NCBI RefSeq assembly: GCF_024502345.1
Contig: NZ_JALDNN010000001.1
Direction: 5' to 3' (one strand)
Origin: Escherichia coli
GTDB taxonomy: Bacteria > Pseudomonadota > Gammaproteobacteria > Enterobacterales > Enterobacteriaceae
DNA length: 64,000 bases
The position numbers and the translations under genes are program-made. Shown here one piece after another: positions 6,930 to 57,102 of the stretch. Position 1 is the stretch's first letter. Each line of letters begins with the position of its first letter. The notes beneath the pieces were generated by a model that had not been told where the DNA came from, made no database searches, and was given only the letters and a program-made list of their open reading frames with translations.

Positions 6930-8114
6930 TTAAACGGGCTGCCCCTGATGCGACATCCGCGTCGCCAGCGGCAGCCAGCACAGCACGATCAACAATCCCA
7001 TTAAGGTCATCAATAACCCCAGGCTACCCTGACCGGTTTGCGGCAACATCGCAGAGAGCGACGCCAGCACGCCGGAACCAATGTTTTGCAGACCGCCGAC
7101 CAGCGCGCCAGCCGTGCCCGCCAGGAAGGGGAACGGCTCCATCGCGCCGCTGGTCGCCAGCGGAAACAGCATCCCGGCACCGAAAAAGAACAGCGCGGCG
7201 GGAACGAGCAGCGTCCAGACATTCATCACGCCAAACCAGTCGGGGATCCACATCAGCAAGCCAGCCAGCAGGCAGCAGATAACCGACTGCCACATTAACG
7301 TGGAGAAGCGTTTATTGGGACGTCCGGCAAACCATGCGCCAAAAAACGCTGCCGGAATCGGCAGAATAAACAAAATACTGACCGTCATACTGCTCAGCCC
7401 TAACACCGCGCCCATCAGCACGCCGGAGCAGGCTTCAAAGGCGGCAATCCCGGCCAGACCGCCAATCAGCATCAGCAAATAACAGTTAAAACCGCTGTTA
7501 CCGAAAAGCGTTTTATAACTGGTAAGCAGGCGCGTGCGCGGTGCATCGACAGGACGCGTTTCCGGCATCCAGCGGGCCATACTGAAGGTCACACCAGCAC
7601 AAAGAACCAACAAAAAGAGATAACAGGCGCGCCAGTTCCACATCGTATCCAGCAGACCGCCGATTAGCGGTGCGAGCAACGGACTGACGAGAATCCCCAT
7701 GTTTAACAGGCTGTTAGCATGGCGCAACTGTGTCCGTTCATATAAATCTCGCGGCAAAGTACGCGCCATTACGCCGCCAACGCCGGTGCCCATCCCCTGC
7801 ATCGCGCTGGCGGCAATCAACACCGTCAAACTGGAGGTCGTGACCGCGACCAGCGTTGCCAGCATAAAAATGGACATTCCGACGAGGATCACCGGTCGGC
7901 GACCCACACGGTCGGAAATCGGGCCATAAAACAGCTGTGAGACACCGTAAGTCAGCAGATAAGCGCCCATTACGCTCTGCACCGCCCCTTCACGGACGTT
8001 GAGATCGCGCGCCATATCGGCAATAGCTGGAATATAAATGGTTTGCGCCATCTGACCGACGGCCACGAGTAATACCAACATCAATAACAAATTGACGTTT
8101 CTATGCCTTTTCAT
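6930..8114 (-). CDS. emrD: MFS multidrug efflux transporter
   Basis: 394-aa 12-TM MFS protein; start trimmed to MKRH. Confidence 0.9.
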   Translation of the reverse strand: MKRHRNVNLLLMLVLLVAVGQMAQTIYIPAIADMARDLNVREGAVQSVMGAYLLTYGVSQLFYGPISDRVGRRPVILVGMSIFMLATLVAVTTSSLTVLIAASAMQGMGTGVGGVMARTLPRDLYERTQLRHANSLLNMGILVSPLLAPLIGGLLDTMWNWRACYLFLLVLCAGVTFSMARWMPETRPVDAPRTRLLTSYKTLFGNSGFNCYLLMLIGGLAGIAAFEACSGVLMGAVLGLSSMTVSILFILPIPAAFFGAWFAGRPNKRFSTLMWQSVICCLLAGLLMWIPDWFGVMNVWTLLVPAALFFFGAGMLFPLATSGAMEPFPFLAGTAGALVGGLQNIGSGVLASLSAMLPQTGQGSLGLLMTLMGLLIVLCWLPLATRMSHQGQPV

Positions 8115-8622: not shown

Positions 8623-8858
8623 ACGCGTCTCCTGTGGTTCAGGAGCACTGCCAGCTGACGTACCTTTCCGCTGCCTGTTGCCAGCTGTTGTGCACGCGGT
8701 ATCTCAAGGAGAAACGTTGTGCTTGTTGACATAACACAGTGTGCTCACGCGGGGTTAAGGCGCTGACGGCACCACCCGTTTCAGCCAGGACTTAGTGCGC
8801 CGGGTAACGATGCGGCCCCCGCATAACACATTGCGTACAGTGATATTATAGAAGTTTG

Positions 8859-8874: not shown

Positions 8875-8975
8875 TAATTTTTGGACAAAACGCAAACTGT
8901 GATCGATACTCAACTATGTACTAAATACGTCAAAATTCGTGCCGAAATTGCGCGTTCTGCGCGGAACAGGTATAC

Positions 8976-9057
8976 TTTCAGTGTTGACATAATACAGTGT
9001 GCTTTGCGGTTACCAGCCGCAGGCGGCTGACGAAACCTCGCTCCGGCGGGGTTTTTT
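8976..9057 (+). ncRNA. istR: IstR-1-like antitoxin sRNA (approximate ends)
   Basis: A TATACT -10 at 8962-8967 is followed by a ~75-nt segment ending in a hairpin and U-tract (9036-9057). The segment carries a 21/22-nt match (GTTGACATAAYACAGTGTGCT) to sequence inside the tisAB 5-prime UTR at 8733-8754, so the two transcripts would be complementary. Confidence 0.55.
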
Positions 9058-23928: not shown

Positions 23929-24564
23929 TTTTCCCTCTGCATACTGTTTTGTCGTTTATGTATGCAGGCATGATAGCAAAAATGGCGAGGATGGCTCTGT
24001 TTGCGCCACGCCGATTTTTCTTAGCCCAGACTGGTGAGCTAAATATCTTTAATAAACAGCAGGCAAATCATCGCAATACCCAACATCCCTATCGCCAGCC
24101 AGAACAACGCATGGTAGCTCCAGATTTCAACCATAATTCCGTCAACAGAGCCGGCGATAATCCAGCCGACGCGTGAAGTATTTGCATATAACGTTGTCGC
24201 AGAGCCTATTTTTTCAGGCATCAAGTCCTGAAAATAAAGCATGCCGATACCACAGAGAATACCAAGGAAGATGGCATTAAGAATTTGCAATTCCAGCTCA
24301 ACCGCCGGAGTCGTCGCCATGAGTACGCTGGCGTAAAAACACATTCCACTCACGATAGCAATGAGCATTAATAGTCGCTTGCCAATACGTTTCATGTAAT
24401 AGCCTGCGATTAACATCATCGGAATTTCCAGACCGGCAGCGATACCAATCATTTCTCCAGCCAGTTTATCGGTTAGATGCAGTTCATCAATAATAAATAG
24501 CGGCATATTTATCATGTAGAGATTATTCGCCGCCCACATCATTGAACAAACCACAAAAAGTAGC

Positions 24565-25785
24565 TGTAGATTCAATCTGTCAATGCAACACCCCTTTCAA
24601 TTATCTCTTTCGGTGTTTTGAACTTCAGTGTCTTTCTCGGTCTGTTGTTTAGCTGAGCAGCAACCAGATCTAGTTCATGTTGAGTATATTGGGCAAGACA
24701 TGTCTTTTTAGGAAAGTACTGCCGAATTAGCCCATTTGTGTTCTCATTTGTTCCCCGCTGCCAAGGACTCTGAGGATCGCAGAAGTAAACTTTAACGCCG
24801 GTGCTGACAGTAAATTCTAGATGTCTGGCCAGTTCCATTCCTCTGTCCCATGTCAGTGATTTTCTGAGTTCTGACGGTAAACTCAGGAATTTGTCGGTAA
24901 GAGCCTGATTTACTGAGACAGAATCTTTGCCCCTGAGTCTAAGGATGATCGTATAACGTGATTTTCGGTCTACAAGTGTGGCTATATGAGAGTTTTTTGT
25001 ACCTGAGACTAAATCGCCCTCCCAATGCCCCAGAGAGCGTCTGTTATCGATATTTCGGGAACGTTCGTGAATTGGTGTTCCGTTCACTATGTTAATCGTA
25101 CCTCTTTCGCCTTTGCGGGTATGACGCCTGCCATGGCGAAGGCTATGCGACCGTCGCAGATGCTGTATATTCAGGTGGTGTAGCGCTTCACGGCTACGAA
25201 AGTACAGCGTTTTATAAATTGTCTCAGGTGATATTCGCAGCGTTTTTTGACGTGGTTTTGTTCGCCTTAACCATCCTGATATTTGCTCTGGAGACCATTT
25301 CATCTCCAGCTTTTCCAGAACAAGCTTTCGCAATGGTAAATTTTGATCCAGTAAGCACGGTTTTGGCCTTTTCGCCATTCTGTTGGCTCGGTTATTAGCA
25401 TCAACAGCTTTGTAATAGCGTCTGCCCCGATTACGCTGAACTTCACGTGAGATCGTCGAAGGACTGCGATTCAGCGCAGTAGCTATCGCACGAATGCTCA
25501 TTTTGGCTGACAAACCAGCTCGTATCTCCTCGCGCTCAGACAGTGTCAGGTGAGCTACAGCCCGCTTACGCTCATGGGGTTTTATGCCGCCAGTATCCCT
25601 TAACATAGTGAAGATCGTTCCGGGTTTTGAACCCAGGATATTCGCTATTTCACTGAAGCCTGTTCCGTTCTTCCATAGTTCAAAAACAGAGGCTTTTTCC
25701 TCTGCTGTAAATGTTCGTCTCATTCAAAAAACCTCCGCAACCCCATGTTTTCACATAACTGTTGCGTTGACCAATTGAATCTACA
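24565..25785 (-). mobile_element. IS30 (1221 bp, complete, with terminal inverted repeats)
   Basis: Ends TGTAGATTCAATCTGTCAATGCAAC (24565) and GCGTTGACCAATTGAATCTACA (25785); flanking GC dinucleotide on both sides. Confidence 0.9.
24572..25723 (-). CDS. insI: IS30 transposase
   Basis: 383-aa ORF; matches the IS30 transposase I remember, with an N-terminal HTH region and a C-terminal DDE domain. Confidence 0.9.
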   Translation of the reverse strand: MRRTFTAEEKASVFELWKNGTGFSEIANILGSKPGTIFTMLRDTGGIKPHERKRAVAHLTLSEREEIRAGLSAKMSIRAIATALNRSPSTISREVQRNRGRRYYKAVDANNRANRMAKRPKPCLLDQNLPLRKLVLEKLEMKWSPEQISGWLRRTKPRQKTLRISPETIYKTLYFRSREALHHLNIQHLRRSHSLRHGRRHTRKGERGTINIVNGTPIHERSRNIDNRRSLGHWEGDLVSGTKNSHIATLVDRKSRYTIILRLRGKDSVSVNQALTDKFLSLPSELRKSLTWDRGMELARHLEFTVSTGVKVYFCDPQSPWQRGTNENTNGLIRQYFPKKTCLAQYTQHELDLVAAQLNNRPRKTLKFKTPKEIIERGVALTD

Positions 25786-26875
25786 GCCGCGTATCTCGCT
25801 TTCTATGGATGGAGGGTAAAATTTCTACGGGTTGGGTAACGACAGGAATATTTCTTTGTATTGATGGCAAAAACAACCAGACTATCAGCCCGCAAACAAC
25901 AAATGCGATGGCAGCGGTGAGATACATCACTTTAAAACTAAATCCCATTGCCAGTTCATAAGCGAGCGGTGGCCCGATAACCCAGGCAAGCGAGATCTGA
26001 GCACGTAAAAATGTACTGAACATGACCGTCTCACGGCCTGTTCTATCGGCGTGTTCACGGGCGAGGGCGAACATTTGCGGGTTTGCGGTGGAAGCAAAAC
26101 TACTCAGAAGTACGCCCGTTGAGAGGAGAATGAAGTAGTTGCGATTCCACGCAAAAAGCGTGCAGGCCAGCACTCCAAATAAGCAACATAGCAGAATCAG
26201 TAATTTACGGTCGCCTTGTTTATCGGAGTGCCTTGCCAGAAATTGACTGACCAGAATTCCCATAATAGCGCTACCGGTGAAGAAAAAACCTACCATTATA
26301 GGACGGGCTTTCAGTTCATCTGCGAGGAATATACTTAGGGTAGGAGTCTGAAGAGCGCCCGCAATACCCGTCAGAAAGGCGACAAGTAAAAATGCCGCGG
26401 CAGTGAGATCAAGTATTTTTGATGGAGTGGTAGCCGTTTTTTGCATTCTTCTGAATCACCGGGCGAAAAAATATAACTGAGTTACAAATAAGTACCAGTC
26501 GAATGAGTATTGTATTAAGAATTTTTGAGTATCGCTGATACAACCAGAAAGCAATGCTAGCGCAATATTATAGGGCCAGCAATTGAGATTATTAGCAAAA
26601 GCATGTTAAGAATTAATTACCGAATTTATATATTAATTATAGTAAGGCAATGAGCTATTTTTGATAGTAAAAATAAAACAAGTTGATTTGATATATTAAA
26701 TGAACAAATTAATCTTGATGGCAGTCTGATTATTGGTGAAGTTTATAGTCAGTTTTTTTCGCCAGCGGTTAAAGAAATAGAATAATCGTATAAAAAAGGG
26801 TGTTCTGGGGCGAGTAAAACAACATCTTCACCTTAATGGCGATACAGTTGGCTGAGAGTCAGCAGGGGGGCAAAT

Positions 26876-27000
26876 CACCTGCAAATAAACACGGCGCATA
26901 CTGGCGTGAATATCGCGGATGCGTTCGAGGACAGAAGAACCGACAGGCGGATTCTTCAGCCGCTCATCGTCCATCACAAAACCTTAGACCAGGTATTCCT
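26876..27000 (-). pseudogene. degenerate internal fragment of a rhuM-family gene
   Basis: About 125 bp align to the intact rhuM-like gene at 27741-27890, with an internal deletion of ~25 bp and several substitutions; no intact ORF. Confidence 0.6.
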
Positions 27001-27067
27001 GAAGCCGATTGAATATTGAGCAGTAGAAAATATCTGGATTGACAGTATTACAAGGGGTTGGAGAACG

Positions 27068-27214: not shown

Positions 27215-28252
27215 CTACTTTTTAGGCTCTGTTTTCCATTGTAGCAAACCGGCGATATCCTTCTCACCTTCGGCTTCTTTTAAGCGCCGTTGTTGTTCAG
27301 CAAACTGACCATACTCCGCCTGCGCTTTTTCATCGGCCATTTTCTTACTGATTTTACCTGCGCCTTGCAAAACCTCACGGTCGTTAAATTGCAGGAACTG
27401 ATCCAGCTTATCCTGCCAGTCGCGTAAAAAGACCTGCTGACGACGACGGGCCTGATCCTCGGCAAAATCCAGCCACATGTTAACTACGCGGTTAAGCTCG
27501 CTGACTTCATCCTGAGTGAGATAATTTTTTGCCACCGTCACGTCACCCTTACGCACCTCTTCACCTTTATAGCTGGTCAGCCCCATATGTGGCTGGCTGG
27601 CGTCAGCACGCAGATGAATGAGTTCAGCGGCGGTATGTCCGGTACAGGCAAAATGTAACTTGTTCTGGATGGTTTGAAAAAACTGCGTGGTTTCTTTCAG
27701 TGATGGTTGATAGTCGGCGGCTAACGCAAAGATCTCTCGCACCCGTAAATAAACCCGACGTTCGCTGGCGCGAATATCGCGGATACGCTCCAGCATCTCA
27801 TCGAAATAGTCGGGCACAGCCGATGAACCCACGGGCGGGTTCTTCAGCCGCTCATCGTCCATCACAAAACCTTTGATCAGGTATTCCTGGAGCGTCTGGG
27901 TTGCCCACTGGCGGAACTGCGTGCCGCGAGGGGAGCGAACGCGGTAGCCGACAGCAAGAATAACAGGCAGGCTGTAGTGAAGCCTGTTGCGGCTTACCTG
28001 ACGGCCACCTTCCTGTTGAACTTGTAAGTAAGACTTACAGGTTGCGTTTTGTTCAAGTTCGCCTTCTTCATAGATCGCTTTAATGTGCTGTGTAACTGCC
28101 TGGGGAGTGATCTGATAAAGGTTTGCGATGGTTGCCTGAGGGAGCCATAGTGTCTCTTGCTCAAAGCGGCATTCAACACGAACTTCACCGTCATCGCTGG
28201 CAAACATAACAAATTCGCCTGCCGGGGATTGGGTTAAGTATTTATCTGTCAT
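27215..28252 (-). CDS. rhuM: RhuM-family protein (virulence-associated, function unknown)
   Basis: 345 aa with the family signature LPVILAVGYRVRSPRGTQFRQWAT. Confidence 0.8.
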   Translation of the reverse strand: MTDKYLTQSPAGEFVMFASDDGEVRVECRFEQETLWLPQATIANLYQITPQAVTQHIKAIYEEGELEQNATCKSYLQVQQEGGRQVSRNRLHYSLPVILAVGYRVRSPRGTQFRQWATQTLQEYLIKGFVMDDERLKNPPVGSSAVPDYFDEMLERIRDIRASERRVYLRVREIFALAADYQPSLKETTQFFQTIQNKLHFACTGHTAAELIHLRADASQPHMGLTSYKGEEVRKGDVTVAKNYLTQDEVSELNRVVNMWLDFAEDQARRRQQVFLRDWQDKLDQFLQFNDREVLQGAGKISKKMADEKAQAEYGQFAEQQRRLKEAEGEKDIAGLLQWKTEPKK

Positions 28253-28339
28253 GCCGTCTCCGCTTATATCTGACTCGCAATGCTGTAATCCGCTTAGTAT
28301 GCCAGAAATTCTTGGTGAAGCTTATTACGCAGATAGCGT

Positions 28340-29284
28340 TTATTTTGCGGGCAGCGCTCCCGGATAATGCTTTGCCACAATGTCATTCATCTTCTCCACC
28401 AGGTCCAGACGCTTAAACGTGATATGCCCGTTGCCTTTCTGAAAGTAGCGAATGGTGAACATATCGTCTTTAAAGACCTGTTGATGCGGGTTATCGCGAA
28501 CAAAATTCATAAATCGGATAGAGACATCATGCCGGTTGTCAGGAATGGTTTTGCCATCCAGCAGGTAAAGCATCCGTTCCAGATCGGCGAGCTGATCGCG
28601 CCGCCAGCCCCAGTTCAGACTGAAGCCCCATCTGTCATGCTTCACCAGATTGTTGACGATAATCTTCTTACCGAAGTAACAGGGATTATTGGTTTTGTAG
28701 TCCCAGCTTAACCCTTTAAATACATTGATAATCCCACGTTCGAAAACATCCTGTTTATTGTGGTGGAGTTGTTCAAAGGTACTTAGGATGTTGGCTTCAC
28801 TGATGGCCGGAAGATCGCCCTCTTCGAGGTTTTTAGCCCACTGGCTGCGGGCTTCGGCATCCATCAAGGTCAACATCCCGGACTTCAGCATGAGATCGCG
28901 CCAGATACTGCGATCGATATTGCAGGTAATCACCGGCATCGCTTTATCGACTGGTTGCATCAGCCAGCAGTCAAAGGAATGGCCCTGTCGCATCGCCCAA
29001 TGCTCCGCCACATCACCACCGATGCTGGAGGTTAGCCGTGAGATATCATCAAGCTTATGGATCAGGATTTCTATCAGGCTCAGCGCAGCATCACGCCCTG
29101 TGACGATGCGTTCTATACTGGTTGAGCAAATTAGCTCATTATGATCGGTTAAAACTTCAGCTTCTGTTTGCATGATATTTTGTCCGTAAAAAGCAAACAC
29201 GCCCGCCGGGAGTGGCAGGCGCATTATGCAATGAGTAAATAAGGAAGACAGATCGGGAATGTAATTCGGGAAGGAGGCTCGCAA
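28340..29284 (-). CDS. hypothetical protein, possibly DUF4942-like as is commonly found downstream of CbtA-family toxins
   Basis: 314-aa ORF directly downstream of the cbtA-like gene; family assignment is from memory only. Confidence 0.4.
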   Translation of the reverse strand: MRASFPNYIPDLSSLFTHCIMRLPLPAGVFAFYGQNIMQTEAEVLTDHNELICSTSIERIVTGRDAALSLIEILIHKLDDISRLTSSIGGDVAEHWAMRQGHSFDCWLMQPVDKAMPVITCNIDRSIWRDLMLKSGMLTLMDAEARSQWAKNLEEGDLPAISEANILSTFEQLHHNKQDVFERGIINVFKGLSWDYKTNNPCYFGKKIIVNNLVKHDRWGFSLNWGWRRDQLADLERMLYLLDGKTIPDNRHDVSIRFMNFVRDNPHQQVFKDDMFTIRYFQKGNGHITFKRLDLVEKMNDIVAKHYPGALPAK

Positions 29285-29287
29285 GAT

Positions 29288-29620
29288 TCAGCGTGTCGAA
29301 AGATTATGGCCTTGTCGTAACAACCCCATTGCCTGTCGCGCCCGCAAAATGTCTACAGCCCGCAGATAAGGCGATTGTTCCTGCCAGCTAAATCCTTTGC
29401 GATCGATGCGAACGAGTTCGTATTTTTCCACCAGAAAGTTCACGGCATCGGCAAGAGTAACGCCTGCGTTGATATGTTCCTGAATGACTGTTTCATCGCA
29501 GAATGGCGTGTCACTCAGGGCCAGGCCATAGTGTTGTGCAAGTAGACGGGTCAGTAACATCTGCCAGACGGCCACAGGCGACGGGCATGGCTTCGCTATG
29601 TGTGCGTCCTCCTTTCGCAT
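29288..29620 (-). CDS. CbtA/YeeV-family type IV toxin homolog, with no cognate antitoxin gene upstream
   Basis: Translation [61 protein letters not shown] resembles CbtA ([31 protein letters not shown]); its 5-prime end overlaps the upstream gene. Confidence 0.65.
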
Positions 29621-30329
29621 TGCGCCCGTTCAGACCACCTTTAATCAGGTTCTCCTGAATGCGCTGATAGGTTGTCCAGAGGTCACCGGACTCATCCTGC
29701 CAGCGACGGGGAGCCAGTAGCTGAGATTCCGTCACCGGCTGATGCTCTTCGCCAAAACGATACGTCAGCGCAGCTTGCGCCAGCGCCGCCTGTGCTGGTG
29801 GAGGTAGCATGAGTGACTGCATGGCATCGCGCTTCTCTTCTACGCGGTCAAATATCCCCAGCACTTCGTAAGCCCCTTCAATGACCTTCTCTACTACGTT
29901 GCCTTTATGCGGGACACGCACCTCCCCGAACGACTCGCCGCAAATCAACCCATTTTGGCAAACAGATCTGAATAAACCCGGCAGCATTTGATATGAACTG
30001 GAGCCGTCATGGCTGTTAAGCAGGATTATTTCTGGCACTTGTTTGCCAGTAATCTGGCCTTCTCGGCGTAGGCGCAGCATGTGTTTGGTGTGCTCACGCT
30101 TGCTCTGGTCCCGCACTCGGGTCTGGCAGGCAAAGAACGGTTGAAAGCCTTCACGCTTCAGGTTATCGAGCAGAGTGATTGTCGGAATGTAGGTATAGCG
30201 GTCACTGCGGGATTCATGTTTGTCTTCGCTGAAGACGCTGGGCACATAGTGCGCCAGCTCCTCGCGGGTTAACGGGCGGTCACGGCGCACAAGATTGGTA
30301 GCACCAAAACGGCTGGCTAAACGGGTCAT
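29511..30329 (-). CDS. DUF932/YfjQ-like protein of CP4-type prophage remnants
   Basis: Starts MTRLASRFG..., as I recall for DUF932 proteins of CP4-57-like elements; its 3-prime end overlaps the cbtA-like ORF by 110 bp. Confidence 0.5.
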
Positions 30330-30399
30330 AGGCGACTCCTTTAAAAATGGGCATAAAAAAGCCACCCCGAAGGATGGCCTGGATTGAAAGGCTGGATTA

Positions 30400-30891
30400 T
30401 TAAGGTGAAACAGAAGGGTGTATCTGCGATGCAGTCTTTTCTGAATCTGGTATCGGCAATGCAGATAGTTCGGCAGGACTAAGCTTTCCTGCGCGGTAAA
30501 GTTGCAGTTTCACCAGAATCGGCGCTTTTTGCGACTGAAGGTAACTCAGGCACCATTCCCGCTTCAGGACTATCCTGACCGGGGCAGGCAAAAGCTCATA
30601 TGCTTTGCTAAAAACGACTTCAACAAAAGCATCATCACTCAGTTTATCCTCGGCAATATTCAACAGACCATTGATGACAATATTTTCCAGTAACAGCCTG
30701 TATTTGTCAGAACCCGTTACCGAAGCTTTAACCGTGTTTTCCGGTAAGTGTTCAGAAGATGTGTCATGATTTTCTGTGTGTGCTTTTCTGCGTGAGAAAT
30801 TCAGCTTTTCTGTAAGGCTACGAAATTTTCCTGTGCTATTTTCAGACATCGTAATTTTATCCTGTGGCCTCCGCGTCTTGCCATCAGGCAA
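30400..30891 (-). CDS. hypothetical protein
   Basis: 163-aa ORF just upstream of and co-oriented with the DUF932 gene; no recognisable motif. Confidence 0.4.
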   Translation of the reverse strand: MPDGKTRRPQDKITMSENSTGKFRSLTEKLNFSRRKAHTENHDTSSEHLPENTVKASVTGSDKYRLLLENIVINGLLNIAEDKLSDDAFVEVVFSKAYELLPAPVRIVLKREWCLSYLQSQKAPILVKLQLYRAGKLSPAELSALPIPDSEKTASQIHPSVSP

Positions 30892-31736
30892 GTACGGCGA
30901 GTTTTTTTATCGCTTTAATCAGGCTAAAGGTGGTCAAACCTGCACCTAGAGCCCTGACCGTGACCGAATGGCTTCGCATCAACGTAACCCCCATTACGCA
31001 CAGGACAAGTTGCCACGTACAATCAGGCCATGGGGGGTCATTACCCGGCATGTCCGTAACCACTTCGCTTTGACTATGCACGGAAAACACCTCTACTTGT
31101 AGCCATTAGGGAGCCACTGGCCCTGTTTGCGAATATCAGTAATAATGCCCCCCTCTTTGACCGAAATGGTACGCCAGCTTGGTTCTTTGCTGGATGCATT
31201 CCCATAGGTATACCCGACAGTCATTGTCAGGTTTTCGCCTGAAGTTGTGGTGAGATCAGCCTCATACTTAGCTTCGGTATTTTGTTTGCGAATAAAACGC
31301 ACGGTGTTGATTGCAGAACAGCGAATACTGCTTTTCGCATATTCAAAGGAATTGTTAGCCATTTGGCATCCGTCGTTTTTAATTTCATCCGTCAGGTTTG
31401 CAGAAACATTAAAGTTCTTAGGTACAGGGGCAAATTTAGCCATGTCGTTTCGCATAGTCGGTGGATCTGTCTGAAGCACAAGATAAACAGGACAATCTGA
31501 TTTGCCTACTTCACACGCTTTTGCCACGTAATCACGTACTGGCCATCCAGCATTACCGAAATATTCCGCACCACTTTCATCTTTGCATTGTGACCAGGTA
31601 GCTTTTTTCCCCATCATAATGCCGTCTACCAGCACACAGGTGACGGCTTTTACAGGCTCACCATCCCACCGGACTGCATCAAAGGGCTGAATGCCTGTAT
31701 GGTTCACGTCAAGCGTGTAGGCCTGTGGATTCCTAG

Positions 31737-32932
<1,196 letters not shown>

Positions 32933-33038: not shown

Positions 33039-34004
33039 ATGCCTTTAGATTTAAGTAACACCTTAGTTATTGGCATCAGCGCAACCGCGCTTTTCGACAT
33101 GAGTGAATCCGATCGCATGTTTCGCGAAACCTATGCGACCGATCCTGATAGCGCCATTGAAAAGTATCGCGCCTACATGCTGGAGCACGAAAACCAGCCT
33201 TTACAACCAGGAACAGGCTATCCCTTGGTCAAAGCGCTTTTGGGACTCAACCAGCACCGTCAACCCGATGATAAATCACCGCTGGTTGAAGTTGTCGTGA
33301 TGTCGCGTAACAGCCCTGATACCGGTATCCGTGTCCTAAATACCATTCGCCATGACAAACTCGATATTACACGTTCAGCCTTTACCGCAGGTGAAACTGT
33401 TGCCGATTACTTAGATGCTTTTGATGTGGATCTGTTTTTAACGACCAACGTTGAAGATGCGCAAAAGGTGATTGATTCCCGGTTCTGCGCCGCAGCAATC
33501 CTGAAAGATCCGCCTTCTGACGCATCTGATATCCCCGAAGGGCAAGTGCGCATTGCTTTTGACGGTGATGCAGTGCTTTTCTCTGATGAAAGTGAGTTAG
33601 TTTATAAAACTCAAGGGATGGCCGCTTTTCACGCCCAGGAGGATGCGCAGCAAGATATCCCGATGGCTGAGGGACCTTATGCCACTTTGCTAAAAAAAAT
33701 AGCCAAGCTTCAGGAGCGATTGCCAACACGAGTCGAGTATTCTCCCGTCCGTATTGCGCTGGTGACAGCCCGAAATAGCCCTTCGGAAATGCGCGTCATT
33801 AAAACGCTGAGAAGCTGGGGGGTATATGTCGATGAAGCTTTTTTTCTTGGCGGTGTAGAGAAAACAAAAGTTCTGAAGGCGTTTAAACCGCACATTTTCT
33901 TCGACGACCAGGATGTGCATTTGGTTGCTGCCGCAAAGGTTGTTCCTTCCGGTAAAGTACCTTATGCCAGTAATTCAGAGCTTTTTGAAAACGTAGCATC
34001 ATGA
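33039..34004 (+). CDS. HAD-superfamily phosphatase resembling the bacterial 5-prime-nucleotidase family; cytoplasmic
   Basis: HAD motifs in the C-terminal half (IAFDGDAVLF, LVTARN, FFDDQDVH); no signal peptide; N-terminal ~170 aa is a separate domain. Confidence 0.6.
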   Translation: MPLDLSNTLVIGISATALFDMSESDRMFRETYATDPDSAIEKYRAYMLEHENQPLQPGTGYPLVKALLGLNQHRQPDDKSPLVEVVVMSRNSPDTGIRVLNTIRHDKLDITRSAFTAGETVADYLDAFDVDLFLTTNVEDAQKVIDSRFCAAAILKDPPSDASDIPEGQVRIAFDGDAVLFSDESELVYKTQGMAAFHAQEDAQQDIPMAEGPYATLLKKIAKLQERLPTRVEYSPVRIALVTARNSPSEMRVIKTLRSWGVYVDEAFFLGGVEKTKVLKAFKPHIFFDDQDVHLVAAAKVVPSGKVPYASNSELFENVAS

Positions 34005-34052: not shown

Positions 34053-35267
34053 TTATGCCGTCTTCCTAAATGCACCCTCTACCACACCCCCGCCTTTCCC
34101 CAGCTCACCAATGTAATCCGCATACCACTGCATCATTTGCCTACGCCCATCAAGATACTGCGCATGGTTATACGTGCCGCGAATCGCATTCTTATCGACA
34201 TGGGCAAGCTGCGTTTCAATCCACGCTGAGTTAAAGCCCTGCTCGTGCAGAATGGTACTCATCGTGTGGCGGAAACCATGTCCCGTCAGCCTGCCTTTAT
34301 ACCCTAATAACTCAATGACCTGATTGATGCTTTCCTTGCTGATCGGCTTGCGAGGATCATTCCTGCCGATAAAGACCAGCGCGTGATGTTTTGATATCGG
34401 CTCAAGTTGCTTGAACAGCGCAATAACCTGTTCTGAGAGCGGCACAATATGGGGCCGTTTCATCTTCATCACTTCTGCCGGGATCTCCCATAGTTTTGTC
34501 TCAAAATCGATATCCTCCCAGCGTGCGAAACGTAGTTCTTGCGTGCGTACACCGGTTAACATAATGATCTGAGTGGCGGTCTTCGTGATAACACTGCCGG
34601 TATAACCCGCCAGATCATTGAGAAAGTGAGGTAGTTCATTGGCAGTAAGGAAAGGAAAATGTACCTTTTTTGGCGTAGCTAAGGCGCTGGCAAGATCGGG
34701 GGCGGGGTTGTAATTCGCTCTGCCGGTAATAATTGCAAAACGGAATACTTCCCCGCAGCGCTGGCGAACTTTACGCATTTTCTCCAGCGCTCCGCGTTTC
34801 TCCATCTTACGTAGCGCTTCCAGTAGTTCCATTGGCTTAATATCAGCAATAGGGCGCTTACCGATGTAGGGGAAGATGTCCTTCTCAAAGGTGTCGATGA
34901 TTTCATCGCGGTAGCGCAATGACCAGCGATCGGCTTTAGTCTGATGCCACTCGCGAGCCACGGCTTCAAACGTGTTCTCTGCATTCAGTTTCTGCGCAAG
35001 TTTCTCGGATTTTTTAGTTTCTCCGGGGTCGCCACCTGCCGCCAGAATCTTCTTCGCCGCATCACGTTTTTCACGGGCGTCTGCCAGAGAAACATCGGGG
35101 TAGACGCCAAAAGCGAGACGCTTCTCTTTACCTGCAACGCGATATTTCATGCGCCAGTAGCGTGAGCCATTGGTTGCTACTTCAACGTACAACCCTCCTG
35201 CATCACCTAAGCGATACGTCTTTTCTCTGGGTTTTAACGCACGCACTTTTGCATCAGTTAATGGCAT
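34053..35267 (-). CDS. P4/CP4-57-type tyrosine integrase
   Basis: 404 aa with an N-terminal arm-binding region (YRLGDAGGLYVEV..YWRMKYR) and catalytic R..HGFRHT..Y residues. Confidence 0.9.
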   Translation of the reverse strand: MPLTDAKVRALKPREKTYRLGDAGGLYVEVATNGSRYWRMKYRVAGKEKRLAFGVYPDVSLADAREKRDAAKKILAAGGDPGETKKSEKLAQKLNAENTFEAVAREWHQTKADRWSLRYRDEIIDTFEKDIFPYIGKRPIADIKPMELLEALRKMEKRGALEKMRKVRQRCGEVFRFAIITGRANYNPAPDLASALATPKKVHFPFLTANELPHFLNDLAGYTGSVITKTATQIIMLTGVRTQELRFARWEDIDFETKLWEIPAEVMKMKRPHIVPLSEQVIALFKQLEPISKHHALVFIGRNDPRKPISKESINQVIELLGYKGRLTGHGFRHTMSTILHEQGFNSAWIETQLAHVDKNAIRGTYNHAQYLDGRRQMMQWYADYIGELGKGGGVVEGAFRKTA

Positions 35268-35862: not shown

Positions 35863-35957
35863 TGGCGGAAGATCACAGGAGTCGAACCTGCCCGGGACCG
35901 CTGGCGGCCCCAACTGGATTTGAAGTCCAGCCGCCTCACCGGAGACGACGATCTTCC
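35863..35957 (-). tRNA. selC: tRNA-Sec (selenocysteine, 95 nt including CCA)
   Basis: The reverse complement reads GGAAGATCGTCGTCTCCGGTGAGGCGGCTGGACTTCAAATCCAGTTGGGGCCGCCAGCGGTCCCGGGCAGGTTCGACTCCTGTGATCTTCCGCCA. Confidence 0.97.
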
Positions 35958-51601: not shown

Positions 51602-53989
<2,388 letters not shown>

Positions 53990-54280: not shown

Positions 54281-54592
54281 CTATTTTTTCTCTGTAATTT
54301 TTACACTGTTTTCCAACTGCTTAATGCTGACCTGCGGGGTCGGCAACTCCTCAGGCATGGTTCCGCCAAGTTCCTGAATGGTTTGCCTCACCTTGCGACC
54401 TACGTCAAAGTGTGTGGTGTTAGCTTGCTGTTTTGAATTCACGCCATCCCGCTTAAGTTTTTCTTCTGTTTGGGTAGCTACTTTGAACCGGATAACCTCG
54501 AATGGGTGACTGGTGAGATTGGTGCGCCGCCGTTCGATGTGTCGGGTGTGGCCTACCTGCTTCATGGCATGGTGTCGTTCGATAAGCGCCAC
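54281..54592 (-). CDS. small ORF of uncertain reality; its C-terminal ~60 codons look protein-like and may be the remnant of the gene displaced by the islet
   Basis: GTG-initiated 103-aa ORF with a charged C-terminus (TQTEEKLKRDGV...GGTMPEELPTPQVSIKQLE); its 5-prime half overlaps a plus-strand ORF. Confidence 0.3.
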   Translation of the reverse strand: MALIERHHAMKQVGHTRHIERRRTNLTSHPFEVIRFKVATQTEEKLKRDGVNSKQQANTTHFDVGRKVRQTIQELGGTMPEELPTPQVSIKQLENSVKITEKK

Positions 54593-54858
54593 CAGATCGA
54601 ATCAACCCGGCGCACACTGGAAAGCATGGTTGCTGGTGGACTGCTTGAGCGGGTGACAGTGTATGAATCGCGCCAGATACGGCGCGGCGGTGAGACTAAC
54701 GCAACGGTCGTGCGCTACGGTTTACCCGGTCAGTGCGCTGTTATGCGCGATACTGGCGGCGCTGATAGCCTGGCTGATTCCGGTAATACTGCGGAGTTAG
54801 GTCTACCGGCATAGCTTACCCGTGGAGAAATGAATCATCGAATGAGTTTGGTCGGGAG

Positions 54859-55539
54859 TTATTCCACCAGCAAAAATGGCGTTGCCCGGTCTATGACGTT
54901 GATGCCAATTAACGAGCTAACATTTCGACCATTCACAATGCTATCCCGTTCAAGCAAATGCGCTATTTTTTCTACTTCATACCAGTATTGAGCCATGAGG
55001 GCTTTGGTCTTTTCAACGAGTTTAGAAAGCATTAACTCCCTGTTAATTTGCTTATTTGTAGCGCAGATTAAATCGAGCATGTCATTTACGTTAGCCATGT
55101 CATAGCGATGAGGTAGCGAATACTTTTTGTTGAAAATATCGTTGTTTTCGTAAAGGGCTTCGCTTACTGGTCCGGCGAGGGATACAAAAGCGGCCTTTTT
55201 TGCATCGCGCTTTATACCATCCGCATAGTAACGTATGAAAGGGATAACTTTACCATTCTGCCCAACTACACCAGATTTACTATCCCGCAAACGCCCGAGA
55301 TCGTGGCTGTGAATTATGCTGTGTTTAACAACGCCCAAACACTTGGCCTCATGTACATGTTCGCCAGCAACGTAACCGTATTCATCCATAACGGCGATAA
55401 CAATATTGGTTTCACGCCCACCGATATGACCAGGAATAACCGGGACAATTGTGGCAAATTCATTACCGTTAATTGTGCCCTGATAGGCGTTCAGATGAGG
55501 GGCGGCCTCAGAAATTAATCTGCTTTTTTCGATGTTCAT
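54859..55539 (-). CDS. hypothetical protein (226 aa, His-rich central segment), cargo of the integrase islet
   Basis: Clean ORF with a TAA stop; contains HVHEAKC and HSIIHSHD segments; no family recognised. Confidence 0.5.
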   Translation of the reverse strand: MNIEKSRLISEAAPHLNAYQGTINGNEFATIVPVIPGHIGGRETNIVIAVMDEYGYVAGEHVHEAKCLGVVKHSIIHSHDLGRLRDSKSGVVGQNGKVIPFIRYYADGIKRDAKKAAFVSLAGPVSEALYENNDIFNKKYSLPHRYDMANVNDMLDLICATNKQINRELMLSKLVEKTKALMAQYWYEVEKIAHLLERDSIVNGRNVSSLIGINVIDRATPFLLVE

Positions 55540-55761
55540 TTTCAGTCTCCGTTAGGCGGCGGTGAGATTGTCCGGGTACCACATGGTTGACACTTAGATC
55601 CAACACGTAGTCGTACCTATCCAGTGAAAACCATTCCATCACATCGCCGTATTTAGCCCGTTTCATAACGCCACCTTTTACGCTGCGCCTTATTTTGTGA
55701 TTGAGCCAGGCGGTAAGGCTTCCCGCTTTTCGCCCCGTCGGGCTAGACTCAATCTATTCAG

Positions 55762-57021
55762 TTAGTTCGCCCTTCTGAGAGGCGTCACGTTGTAATCTTC
55801 GCCCTTCTCCAGAGCCACCAGCAAGCCCGCCCACTGTGTTAACGCAGCCCGTCGCTCGTCAAAGTATTGGTGACGGTTATAAATCCCCTCTACGCCCTTA
55901 ATGCGATGATTGAGGCATCGTTCCGCCACTACCGGATCAACGCCCAGCGCTGCTAAATGGGTGCGGGCCGTGCGTCGGAAGTCGTGAATCGTGAAATTAG
56001 GCACATCCGGCATTTCGGCGCGAACCTTAGCCAGTGCTACGGGCAGGGTGCTTTCCTGAATATGGGGGATCATGCGGTTTTGCATCTTTCTGGCTGGCAG
56101 TACCCATGCGCTGTTGCATGAGAACGTTTTAAGCTCTCTCAGCCATTCGACGGCTGGCGGTGCTAATGGGATGTCTATAGCGTCGCCGTTTTTGCTGCGT
56201 TCCTCTGGCAAGCGCCATACGGCTTTATCAAAATCGAACTCCTCCCAGCGGGCGGCGCATAACTCCATTTTGCGGACGCATAACGCTAACAGTAATTTGA
56301 ACGTGATTTCGTTCTGGCGACTGAATCCCTTAGCCGTGCGCATGGCTTTGAATAGCTGGATTAACTCATCGCGGGTTAACCAGCGGTCACGGGCAACTTC
56401 TTTCCCTCCGGCGTCTGCCACCTCAAAGGCTGAACAGGGGTTAATCTCCAGCGCGTGCCGTTTGATTCCGTAGTCGAATATGCGGCGCGTCCATCTCAGC
56501 ACGTCCGTTGCTATGGTCGGCGCTCCACGGTCAACAATACTTTTCAGCATGTCGTCGATATGGCGCGGCTTCACGTCCTCTACCTTCATGCTGCCAATGC
56601 AGGGGTTTATATCTTTGTCGATACGGCGGCGGAGTATATCTGGGTGCTTCCAGCGCGGCAGGATCTGACGCTCAAAGTATTCAGCGGCAAGCTCTGAAAC
56701 GCGCATGGCATTCTTCTCTGCTTCGATCTTCGCCAGTGCTTCGGCTTTCCGTTCCTGCTTCTCTCCTGCAACGTCATAGCCCAACGCAACGCGAGCCGAT
56801 AGCTCTTTGGCTGTCTCTCTGGCCTTTGATAGTGATAGCTCGGCATATGAGCCGATAACCATTGCTCGCTGCTTACCTGCGAATTTATAGCGAAAGCGCC
56901 AGAAAGGGACTGTGTAGTTTTTGGGGTAGCAAATATAAAGGCCGTTGCCATCGGCCCTTCCTTCAAATCTATCTCCGGCCTTTATCCATGCGCGGATCTG
57001 CATGTCTGTAATCTTTGGCAT
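55762..57021 (-). CDS. P4-type tyrosine integrase
   Basis: N-terminus MPKITDMQIRAWIK..GLYICYP is typical of the arm-binding domain; C-terminal catalytic HDFRRT..Y residues; start trimmed from 57057. Confidence 0.85.
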   Translation of the reverse strand: MPKITDMQIRAWIKAGDRFEGRADGNGLYICYPKNYTVPFWRFRYKFAGKQRAMVIGSYAELSLSKARETAKELSARVALGYDVAGEKQERKAEALAKIEAEKNAMRVSELAAEYFERQILPRWKHPDILRRRIDKDINPCIGSMKVEDVKPRHIDDMLKSIVDRGAPTIATDVLRWTRRIFDYGIKRHALEINPCSAFEVADAGGKEVARDRWLTRDELIQLFKAMRTAKGFSRQNEITFKLLLALCVRKMELCAARWEEFDFDKAVWRLPEERSKNGDAIDIPLAPPAVEWLRELKTFSCNSAWVLPARKMQNRMIPHIQESTLPVALAKVRAEMPDVPNFTIHDFRRTARTHLAALGVDPVVAERCLNHRIKGVEGIYNRHQYFDERRAALTQWAGLLVALEKGEDYNVTPLRRAN

Positions 57022-57048
57022 TGCGAATACCTGAACATTGAATGGGGG

Positions 57049-57102
57049 TGTGTACATAAACCGATGTACATAAAACCCATTATGTACACCACTATGTACA
57101 CG
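57049..57102. repeat. four TGTACA palindromic iterons upstream of the islet integrase
   Basis: TGTACATAAA, TGTACATAAA, TGTACACC and TGTACACG spaced 12-17 bp apart. Confidence 0.6.

Follow-up and report, generated by a model that had tools for sequence, protein, structure and literature searches.

The type IV toxin–antitoxin (TA) modules of Escherichia coli K-12 are CbtA/CbeA of CP4-44, YkfI/YafW of CP4-6 and YpjF/YfjZ of CP4-57. In CbtA, residue F65 is required for the binding of FtsZ and R15 for the binding of MreB, and each of the single mutants is still toxic (Heller et al., PMC5624674). Transcription of the three K-12 toxin genes is weak, without autoregulation of the operon by either partner; the CbeA-family antitoxins act on FtsZ and MreB, without binding the toxin, and CbeA, YafW and YfjZ each neutralise CbtA, YkfI and YpjF (Wen et al., PMC5371832). 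A K-12 strain without all three of these antitoxins, in which the three intact toxin genes were kept, grows normally (PMC5371832). Partners that have become separated are also on record: YagB of CP4-6 is an orphan antitoxin (PMC5371832) and, across 950 E. coli genomes, 113 of 169 toxin groups were found unpaired somewhere, with a CbtA copy number of up to eight (PMC10790755). Here, we describe an orphan CbtA-family toxin open reading frame (ORF) in a 64,000-nt stretch of an E. coli genome (contig NZ_JALDNN010000001.1 of assembly GCF_024502345.1), hereafter referred to as the window, to which all coordinates refer unless a locus is named. The ORF lies in a P4/CP4-like island at the selC tRNA gene, and the region around it is the scar of one 1,301-bp deletion within this island.

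The toxin ORF belongs to the same Pfam family as the K-12 toxins (PF06755, CbtA_toxin; 3e-57, model positions 10–108 of 112) and has the conserved phenylalanine of the FtsZ contact. Its ancestral neighbourhood, with genes for a RadC-like protein, DUF987, antitoxin and toxin in a P4-like island at a tRNA gene, also resembles that of the K-12 modules. Unlike these modules, however, the locus in the window has no antitoxin, DUF987 or radC gene, and its toxin has a foreign N-terminus of eight residues, no upstream region of its own and a start codon inside another ORF. It shares with YagB and with the orphan toxins of the 950 genomes the survival of one TA partner after gene loss in a mobile element, but it differs from known orphan partners in that the event can be traced at single-base resolution and the survivor is the toxin.

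The original prediction had assigned the CbtA, DUF932 and DUF4942 families, and Pfam confirmed all three. The DUF932 ORF (29511–30365, minus strand) matched PF06067 (1.4e-48) over model positions 1–212 of 227, short of full length, and the DUF4942 ORF (28340–29284, minus strand) matched PF13708 (1.4e-70) over positions 3–189 of 190, a full-length match. The likely starts are ATG 30329 for DUF932 (272 aa), rather than GTG 30365, and ATG 29173 for DUF4942 (277 aa, as in strain G3/10), rather than TTG 29284. The overlap of 110 bp between the toxin and DUF932 ORFs is real, and extends over 29511–29620. The toxin ORF had been described as lacking an adjacent antitoxin, and tblastn with the antitoxin of the intact island detected no CbeA/YeeU sequence in the whole window (best E = 0.13 at 7107–7217, a chance match) and no CbeA-like small ORF in the overlap. 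No model matching the toxin, DUF4942, RhuM or hypothetical proteins was found in NCBIfam, and PADLOC yielded no match for the toxin, DUF932 or DUF4942. The 149-aa protein encoded upstream of DUF932 had no family match in PHROGs, PADLOC or NCBIfam. The PDB contained no solved structure related to the toxin, and no Rfam RNA family was detected within 28000–31200.

The ancestral arrangement is preserved in extant islands. In the annotation of G3/10, the genes follow the order DUF932, RadC, DUF987, YeeU-family antitoxin, CbtA-family toxin, DUF4942, RhuM and setC, and this order is shared by CFSAN051542, in which DUF987 contains an IS3 element. We predicted the ancestral DUF932 protein (273 aa) by joining residues 1–244 of the window protein to the C-terminus of the G3/10 protein, and an exact-sequence look-up showed that this protein exists in public assemblies (199 blocks of the collection). 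Every fetched locus with the ancestral protein had the order 149-aa gene, DUF932, RadC, DUF987, CbeA, CbtA and DUF4942. The CP4-type order assumed in the original prediction, with the antitoxin before the toxin and RadC and DUF987 further upstream, is thus present in intact islands (L015, L017 and L019, and also G3/10, L001; L015 is GCA_964045355.1). We compared these islands with the window. On the DUF932 side, the identity of L015, L017 and L019 to the window was 100% over 2,140 bp and, on the toxin side, L017 and L019 had no mismatch to it over 2,523 bp.

When positions 8734–10034 of L015 (1,301 bp) are removed, the remaining sequence reproduces positions 31736–27087 of the window over 4,650 bases with 0 mismatches. 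This exact reconstruction from intact islands establishes, to the base, the internal deletion that had been proposed to have removed the antitoxin and rebuilt the 5' end of the toxin gene. The lost DNA comprised 89 nt from the 3' end of DUF932, equal to 29 codons plus the stop codon; the spacer of 70 bp between DUF932 and radC, with a terminator-like hairpin (L001 8446–8420); all of radC, DUF987 and cbeA, so that no antitoxin gene is left immediately before the toxin gene; a site resembling a promoter, within the 3' end of DUF987 and upstream of cbeA (L001 7748–7719); and the 35-bp spacer between cbeA and cbtA together with the first 31–33 nt of cbtA (10–11 codons). Codon 244 of DUF932 is joined to codon 11 of cbtA. 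As the deleted length is not divisible by three, reading from DUF932 continues in a wrong frame through cbtA DNA, and the resulting fusion ORF consists of 244 native codons, the junction codon and 27 out-of-frame codons (29511–29596), with its stop at 29511. The last 29 native codons of DUF932 are thus replaced by 28. The toxin gene, in turn, begins at ATG 29620, in DUF932-derived DNA and 110 nt inside the DUF932 ORF, this being the first start codon after the preceding in-frame stop.

At the junction (29597–29598), a single TA survives from a 2-bp direct repeat. The ancestral sequence on the gene strand is ...CACACA-TA-CCCGC...(1.29 kb)...GCGGG-TA-GCGAAGCC..., and the lost DNA was bracketed both by this direct repeat and by a perfect 7-bp inverted repeat, TACCCGC...GCGGGTA (L015 8732–8738 and 10028–10034), in which the direct repeat is included. 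Illegitimate deletion between short direct repeats beside palindromic sequence is a classical picture, of the Albertini and Glickman–Ripley type. The event in the window resembles such deletions in the 2-bp direct repeat at its endpoints and in the 7-bp inverted repeat around the lost DNA, but differs from them in that the loop would measure about 1.3 kb, a long distance for a stem of 7 bp, which would make a weak tether. Inverted repeats of at least 5 bp lie just inside random pairs of 2-bp-repeat positions of the same island with a frequency of 0.0011, a value whose true significance is weaker because the pattern was noticed post hoc. The inverted repeat at the endpoints could point to a hairpin-guided deletion rather than to random slippage.

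A junction of this kind might also arise as an assembly artefact, or as a recombination seam between two islands rather than a deletion within one. The idea of a seam between two different islands was prompted by the first comparison with G3/10, in which identity to the window was 100% left of 29598 and 93.5% overall right of 29597. However, the first difference from G3/10 is located at 30063, 465 bp from the junction, and the junction is therefore not a seam of this kind; the exact ancestors are to be found in L015, L017 and L019, and extant islands match the window at 100% identity on either side of the junction. The same junction was, moreover, present in ten independent assemblies, and we attach a negligible probability to either an artefact or a seam. 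The divergence itself is a separate observation: over 30063–31730, starting inside DUF932, the identity to G3/10 and CFSAN051542 falls from 100% to about 93%, whereas L015, L017 and L019 stay at 100%. This break looks like a mosaic boundary from homologous recombination between island variants, unrelated to the deletion junction.

The deletion allele is real and is carried by a circulating lineage, as shown by its presence, with 100% identity, in at least ten independent metagenome assemblies. The index of the collection lists the 272-aa fusion protein in 34 blocks, against the 199 of the intact allele, which is therefore the commoner of the two, and the contigs of 24 of these blocks were examined. 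Ten contigs with the fusion, from separate ENA/Logan assemblies (ERZ27268145, ERZ27268317, ERZ28657917, ERZ19692831, ERZ10621027, ERR2855922, ERZ19693311, SRR21969373, ERZ28521477 and ERZ28660770), all had the sequence of the window at the junction and along the toxin, and eight of them had it over their whole length. The other two were L004, with three substitutions around 26785–26846, and L012, with a run of N at about 29499–29500 and one substitution at 27885. In a megablast search of 5,426 complete E. coli genomes, the fused arrangement was absent; four complete genomes cover the query, as two pieces lying about 1.3 kb further apart. The 110-aa toxin corresponds to RefSeq WP_256632695.1, labelled "TA system toxin CbtA family protein" and derived from one 4.74-Mb E. 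coli contig. Literature searches, which were not aimed at this allele, turned up no published description of it.

The rebuilt toxin is a chimera. The native residues 1–11 (MNTSPATNQRV) are replaced by eight residues (MRKEDAHI) read from DUF932 DNA, and the ORF thus lacks the complete native N-terminus of the CbtA family. Its residues 9–110, which represent 102 of the 113 native residues, are identical to the ancestral toxin at all 102 positions. The chimera has 73% identity to the proven toxin YpjF and 55% to K-12 CbtA, and all the family-invariant columns from position 9 on are retained; its F62 aligns with F65 of CbtA, inside the invariant AVNFLVEKY block. The position equivalent to R15 of CbtA is a cysteine in the ancestral toxin and in YpjF, and is unaltered in the window ORF. 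Inactivating substitutions relative to an active toxin would have spoken against the original prediction, and no substitution was found outside the replaced N-terminal tail.

It may be asked whether the replacement of the first 11 residues has nevertheless killed the protein, given that the N-terminal region near R15 of CbtA matters for MreB binding (PMC5624674) and that Pfam model positions 1–9 fall outside the match to the toxin. However, the replaced residues form the least conserved stretch of the CbtA family in the alignment, and the R15-equivalent position and everything beyond it are retained unchanged. In the AlphaFold model of the ancestral toxin (mean predicted local distance difference test score, pLDDT, of 71; core blocks 87–92), residues 1–9 have a pLDDT below 50 and no secondary structure precedes the helix starting at residue 18, so that the replaced stretch is a variable tail for which disorder is predicted. 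CbtA with R15C alone is still toxic through FtsZ, and CbtA fused to His6 or lambda-CI stays functional (PMC5624674); N-terminally His-tagged YpjF is toxic, and T25-YkfI and T25-YpjF still bind FtsZ in two-hybrid assays (PMC5371832). N-terminal FLAG fusions within the toxin family are also active (PMC5624674, PMC5371832). A toxin inactivated by the loss of its native N-terminus is thus quite improbable. By conservation, structural model and analogy with these fusions, the chimeric toxin would probably still be toxic if made in quantity, through FtsZ and perhaps through MreB.

We infer that the cell tolerates this remnant for three reasons. Even intact toxins of this family are very weakly expressed; the sequence that lay immediately in front of the operon is missing from the remnant, the start codon of which falls in a stretch translated in another frame; and CbeA-family antitoxins of other islands, which act on the targets of the toxin, could cover any toxin that is made. 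The evidence for tolerance comes from three general lines, none of them specific to this strain: the normal growth of the K-12 triple antitoxin knockout together with the weak transcription of the toxin genes, the cross-neutralisation by antitoxins that act on FtsZ and MreB, and the frequency of antitoxin paralogues. YeeU/CbeA-like DNA, similar to the lost antitoxin gene, was found in 5,003 of the 5,426 complete E. coli genomes (92%), at a median of three places per genome, and a CbeA-family partner acting in trans is therefore likely to be present elsewhere in this genome. The original prediction had left a choice between a toxin that is inactive or unexpressed and one that is neutralised in trans; this choice appears less puzzling in the light of the K-12 triple antitoxin knockout and the abundance of orphan toxins.

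The expression signals point in both directions. The DNA directly upstream of the cbeA-cbtA pair is gone, including the sole promoter-like site found there, a terminator-like hairpin (30380–30359) lies just upstream of DUF932, and the new start codon falls inside a stretch translated in another frame, all of which argue against expression. RNA folding at the new start codon does not stand out (z = -0.09), which is a point for expression. Two further observations speak for expression and against a silent remnant. A Shine-Dalgarno-like AAAGGTGG lies 14 nt before the new ATG, with a duplex of -6.1 kcal/mol, compared with -3.0 at the native cbtA site. With the loss of the terminator-like hairpin that followed DUF932, transcripts of this gene should now extend into the truncated cbtA gene, and on to the hairpin at 29225–29196, which is likely to form the 3' end of a transcript now carrying the remnants of both genes. 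The promoter and terminator calls are consensus matches, the count of which is not above that in shuffled sequence. The window provides no CbeA homologue for neutralisation in trans, and the toxin ORF has no polymorphism in the ten contigs, so that nothing can be inferred about selection on the remnant.

These signals also bear on a split system, in which the orphan toxin would be active, made from a DUF932 read-through transcript, and the cell would survive only through CbeA-family antitoxins of other islands acting in trans. The intact toxin core, the plausible read-through into cbtA and a Shine-Dalgarno-like signal no weaker than the native one are consistent with such a system, as are the cross-neutralisation among the K-12 pairs (PMC5371832) and the 92% of complete genomes with at least one paralogue, at the median given above. 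If true, the scar would make the cell dependent on keeping its other islands, as a natural cross-island addiction, which would be of modest interest to TA researchers. However, the K-12 triple knockout grows normally with three intact toxins, and an antitoxin in trans need not be required; furthermore, the 64-kb window holds no CbeA paralogue, and translation of the toxin would have to start inside a stretch that is read in another frame. We therefore consider a split system rather unlikely, though less so than a dead toxin protein. Taken as a whole, a deletion scar of 1,301 bp in a P4/CP4-like selC island, with tolerance of an orphan toxin whose core is intact, is in our view a highly probable account of the locus. 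The features of the locus are listed in Table 1.

Table 1. Features of the selC island around the orphan toxin gene, in window coordinates; minus-strand genes from the 149-aa gene to rhuM are given in the order of transcription, and the single features follow
Feature	Position	Strand	Basis
149-aa hypothetical gene, upstream of DUF932, island member	30400..30849	-	ORF list; called genes in L003-L020
Truncated DUF932 fusion ORF, 272 aa	29511..30329	-	PF06067; PHROG 12094 positions 1-252/281; compared with native 273-aa protein
Chimeric cbtA ORF, 110 aa	29288..29620	-	PF06755; compared with G3/10 toxin, K-12 CbtA and YpjF
DUF4942 gene, intact, 277 aa, downstream of toxin	28340..29173	-	PF13708; 100% identical to G3/10
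rhuM, final island gene, adjoins setC	27215..28252	-	G3/10 annotation; PADLOC PDC-S05, 1e-171
Deletion junction, single TA copy	29597..29598	.	blastn against L001 and L015; exact reconstruction; inverted-repeat test
Terminator-like hairpin and T tract, between cbtA stop and DUF4942 start	29196..29225	-	Consensus scan only; same site in intact island
Terminator-like hairpin directly upstream of DUF932 start	30359..30380	-	Consensus scan only
IS5 copy	31737..32932	+	IS5 end sequences at 31737 and 32932; island homology ends at 31736
Tyrosine integrase of island, adjoins tRNA-Sec	34053..35267	-	PHROG 1 integrase, 2.6e-76
tRNA-Sec (selC)	35863-35957		ARAGORN and Rfam

The island is located between setC and selC, with its tyrosine integrase beside tRNA-Sec at one end and setC at the other, the layout of a P4/CP4-like island. 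It is inserted in an ordinary E. coli backbone (nlpA, yicL and setC, and later yicJ to yicC; 98–99% identity). The short intergenic gaps of this part of the island each hold a GC-rich hairpin followed by a T tract (30359–30380, 29196–29225 and L001 8420–8446). RhuM matches a candidate defence family of PADLOC (PDC-S05), and a 72-bp fragment at 26934–27005 is about 90% identical to positions 27822–27893 of rhuM and is annotated in G3/10 as a RhuM pseudogene fragment. A 321-aa gene between IS5 and the integrase (33039–34004) matches another PADLOC candidate defence family (PDC-S08, 1.8e-134), with no match in NCBIfam or PHROGs.

Further traces of decay were observed in the island and beyond it. 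The IS5 copy has the ends GGAAGGTGCGAA, its left end at 31737 directly adjoins the last island-homologous base (31736), and a 267-aa island gene is cut there to an ORF at 31093–31806. Past this point, the intact islands carry genes for proteins of 144 aa and 433 aa, AlpA, YagK/YfjJ, a TIR-domain protein and hsdM, all of which are missing from the window. The IS5 site thus marks a second, IS-associated loss of island DNA, affecting its distal part. An IS30 copy (24565–25784, with a 383-aa transposase at 24572–25723) splits setC into ORFs at 24039–24575 and 25781–26446. The metagenome contig L003 has the same toxin deletion and an intact 394-aa setC, indicating that the IS30 insertion is younger than the deletion. 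The ligB gene (51688–53375) is split into ORFs of 347 and 215 aa by a 1-base deletion at about 52714 relative to strain WWCOL-256, as a pseudogene or through a sequencing error.

A second decayed island, without a CbeA homologue, occupies 54476–57057. WWCOL-256 has a P4-like island of about 12 kb between dinD and the integrase on the yicC side, of which the window keeps the fragments 54476–54767, 54806–55401 and 55453–55578; an int-alpA RNA (55687–55753, Rfam RF02996) adjoins a 431-aa integrase ORF (55762–57057) beside yicC. The window also contains a full-length istR small RNA (8928–9057, Rfam RF01400, 144.8 bits), the antitoxin RNA of the tisB/istR type I system.

From its sequence, the toxin locus is best read as part of an island in decay and not as a functional pair of genes. 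The loss beside IS5 at 31737 agrees with this interpretation, and the IS30 insertion in setC and the ligB frameshift are signs of decay in other parts of the window. We see here the usual decay of a mobile element, with no new system; the gene family and orphan toxins are both well known, and the locus has little significance beyond annotation. With regard to annotation, the automatic label of WP_256632695.1 hides both a deletion chimera and the frame-shifted DUF932 fusion next to it. The locus nevertheless provides a base-exact example of a TA module decaying to an orphan toxin in a genomic island, with the ancestral and derived alleles both circulating in public data. It shows that the loss of the CbeA antitoxin is tolerated in nature, in agreement with the normal growth of the K-12 triple antitoxin knockout.

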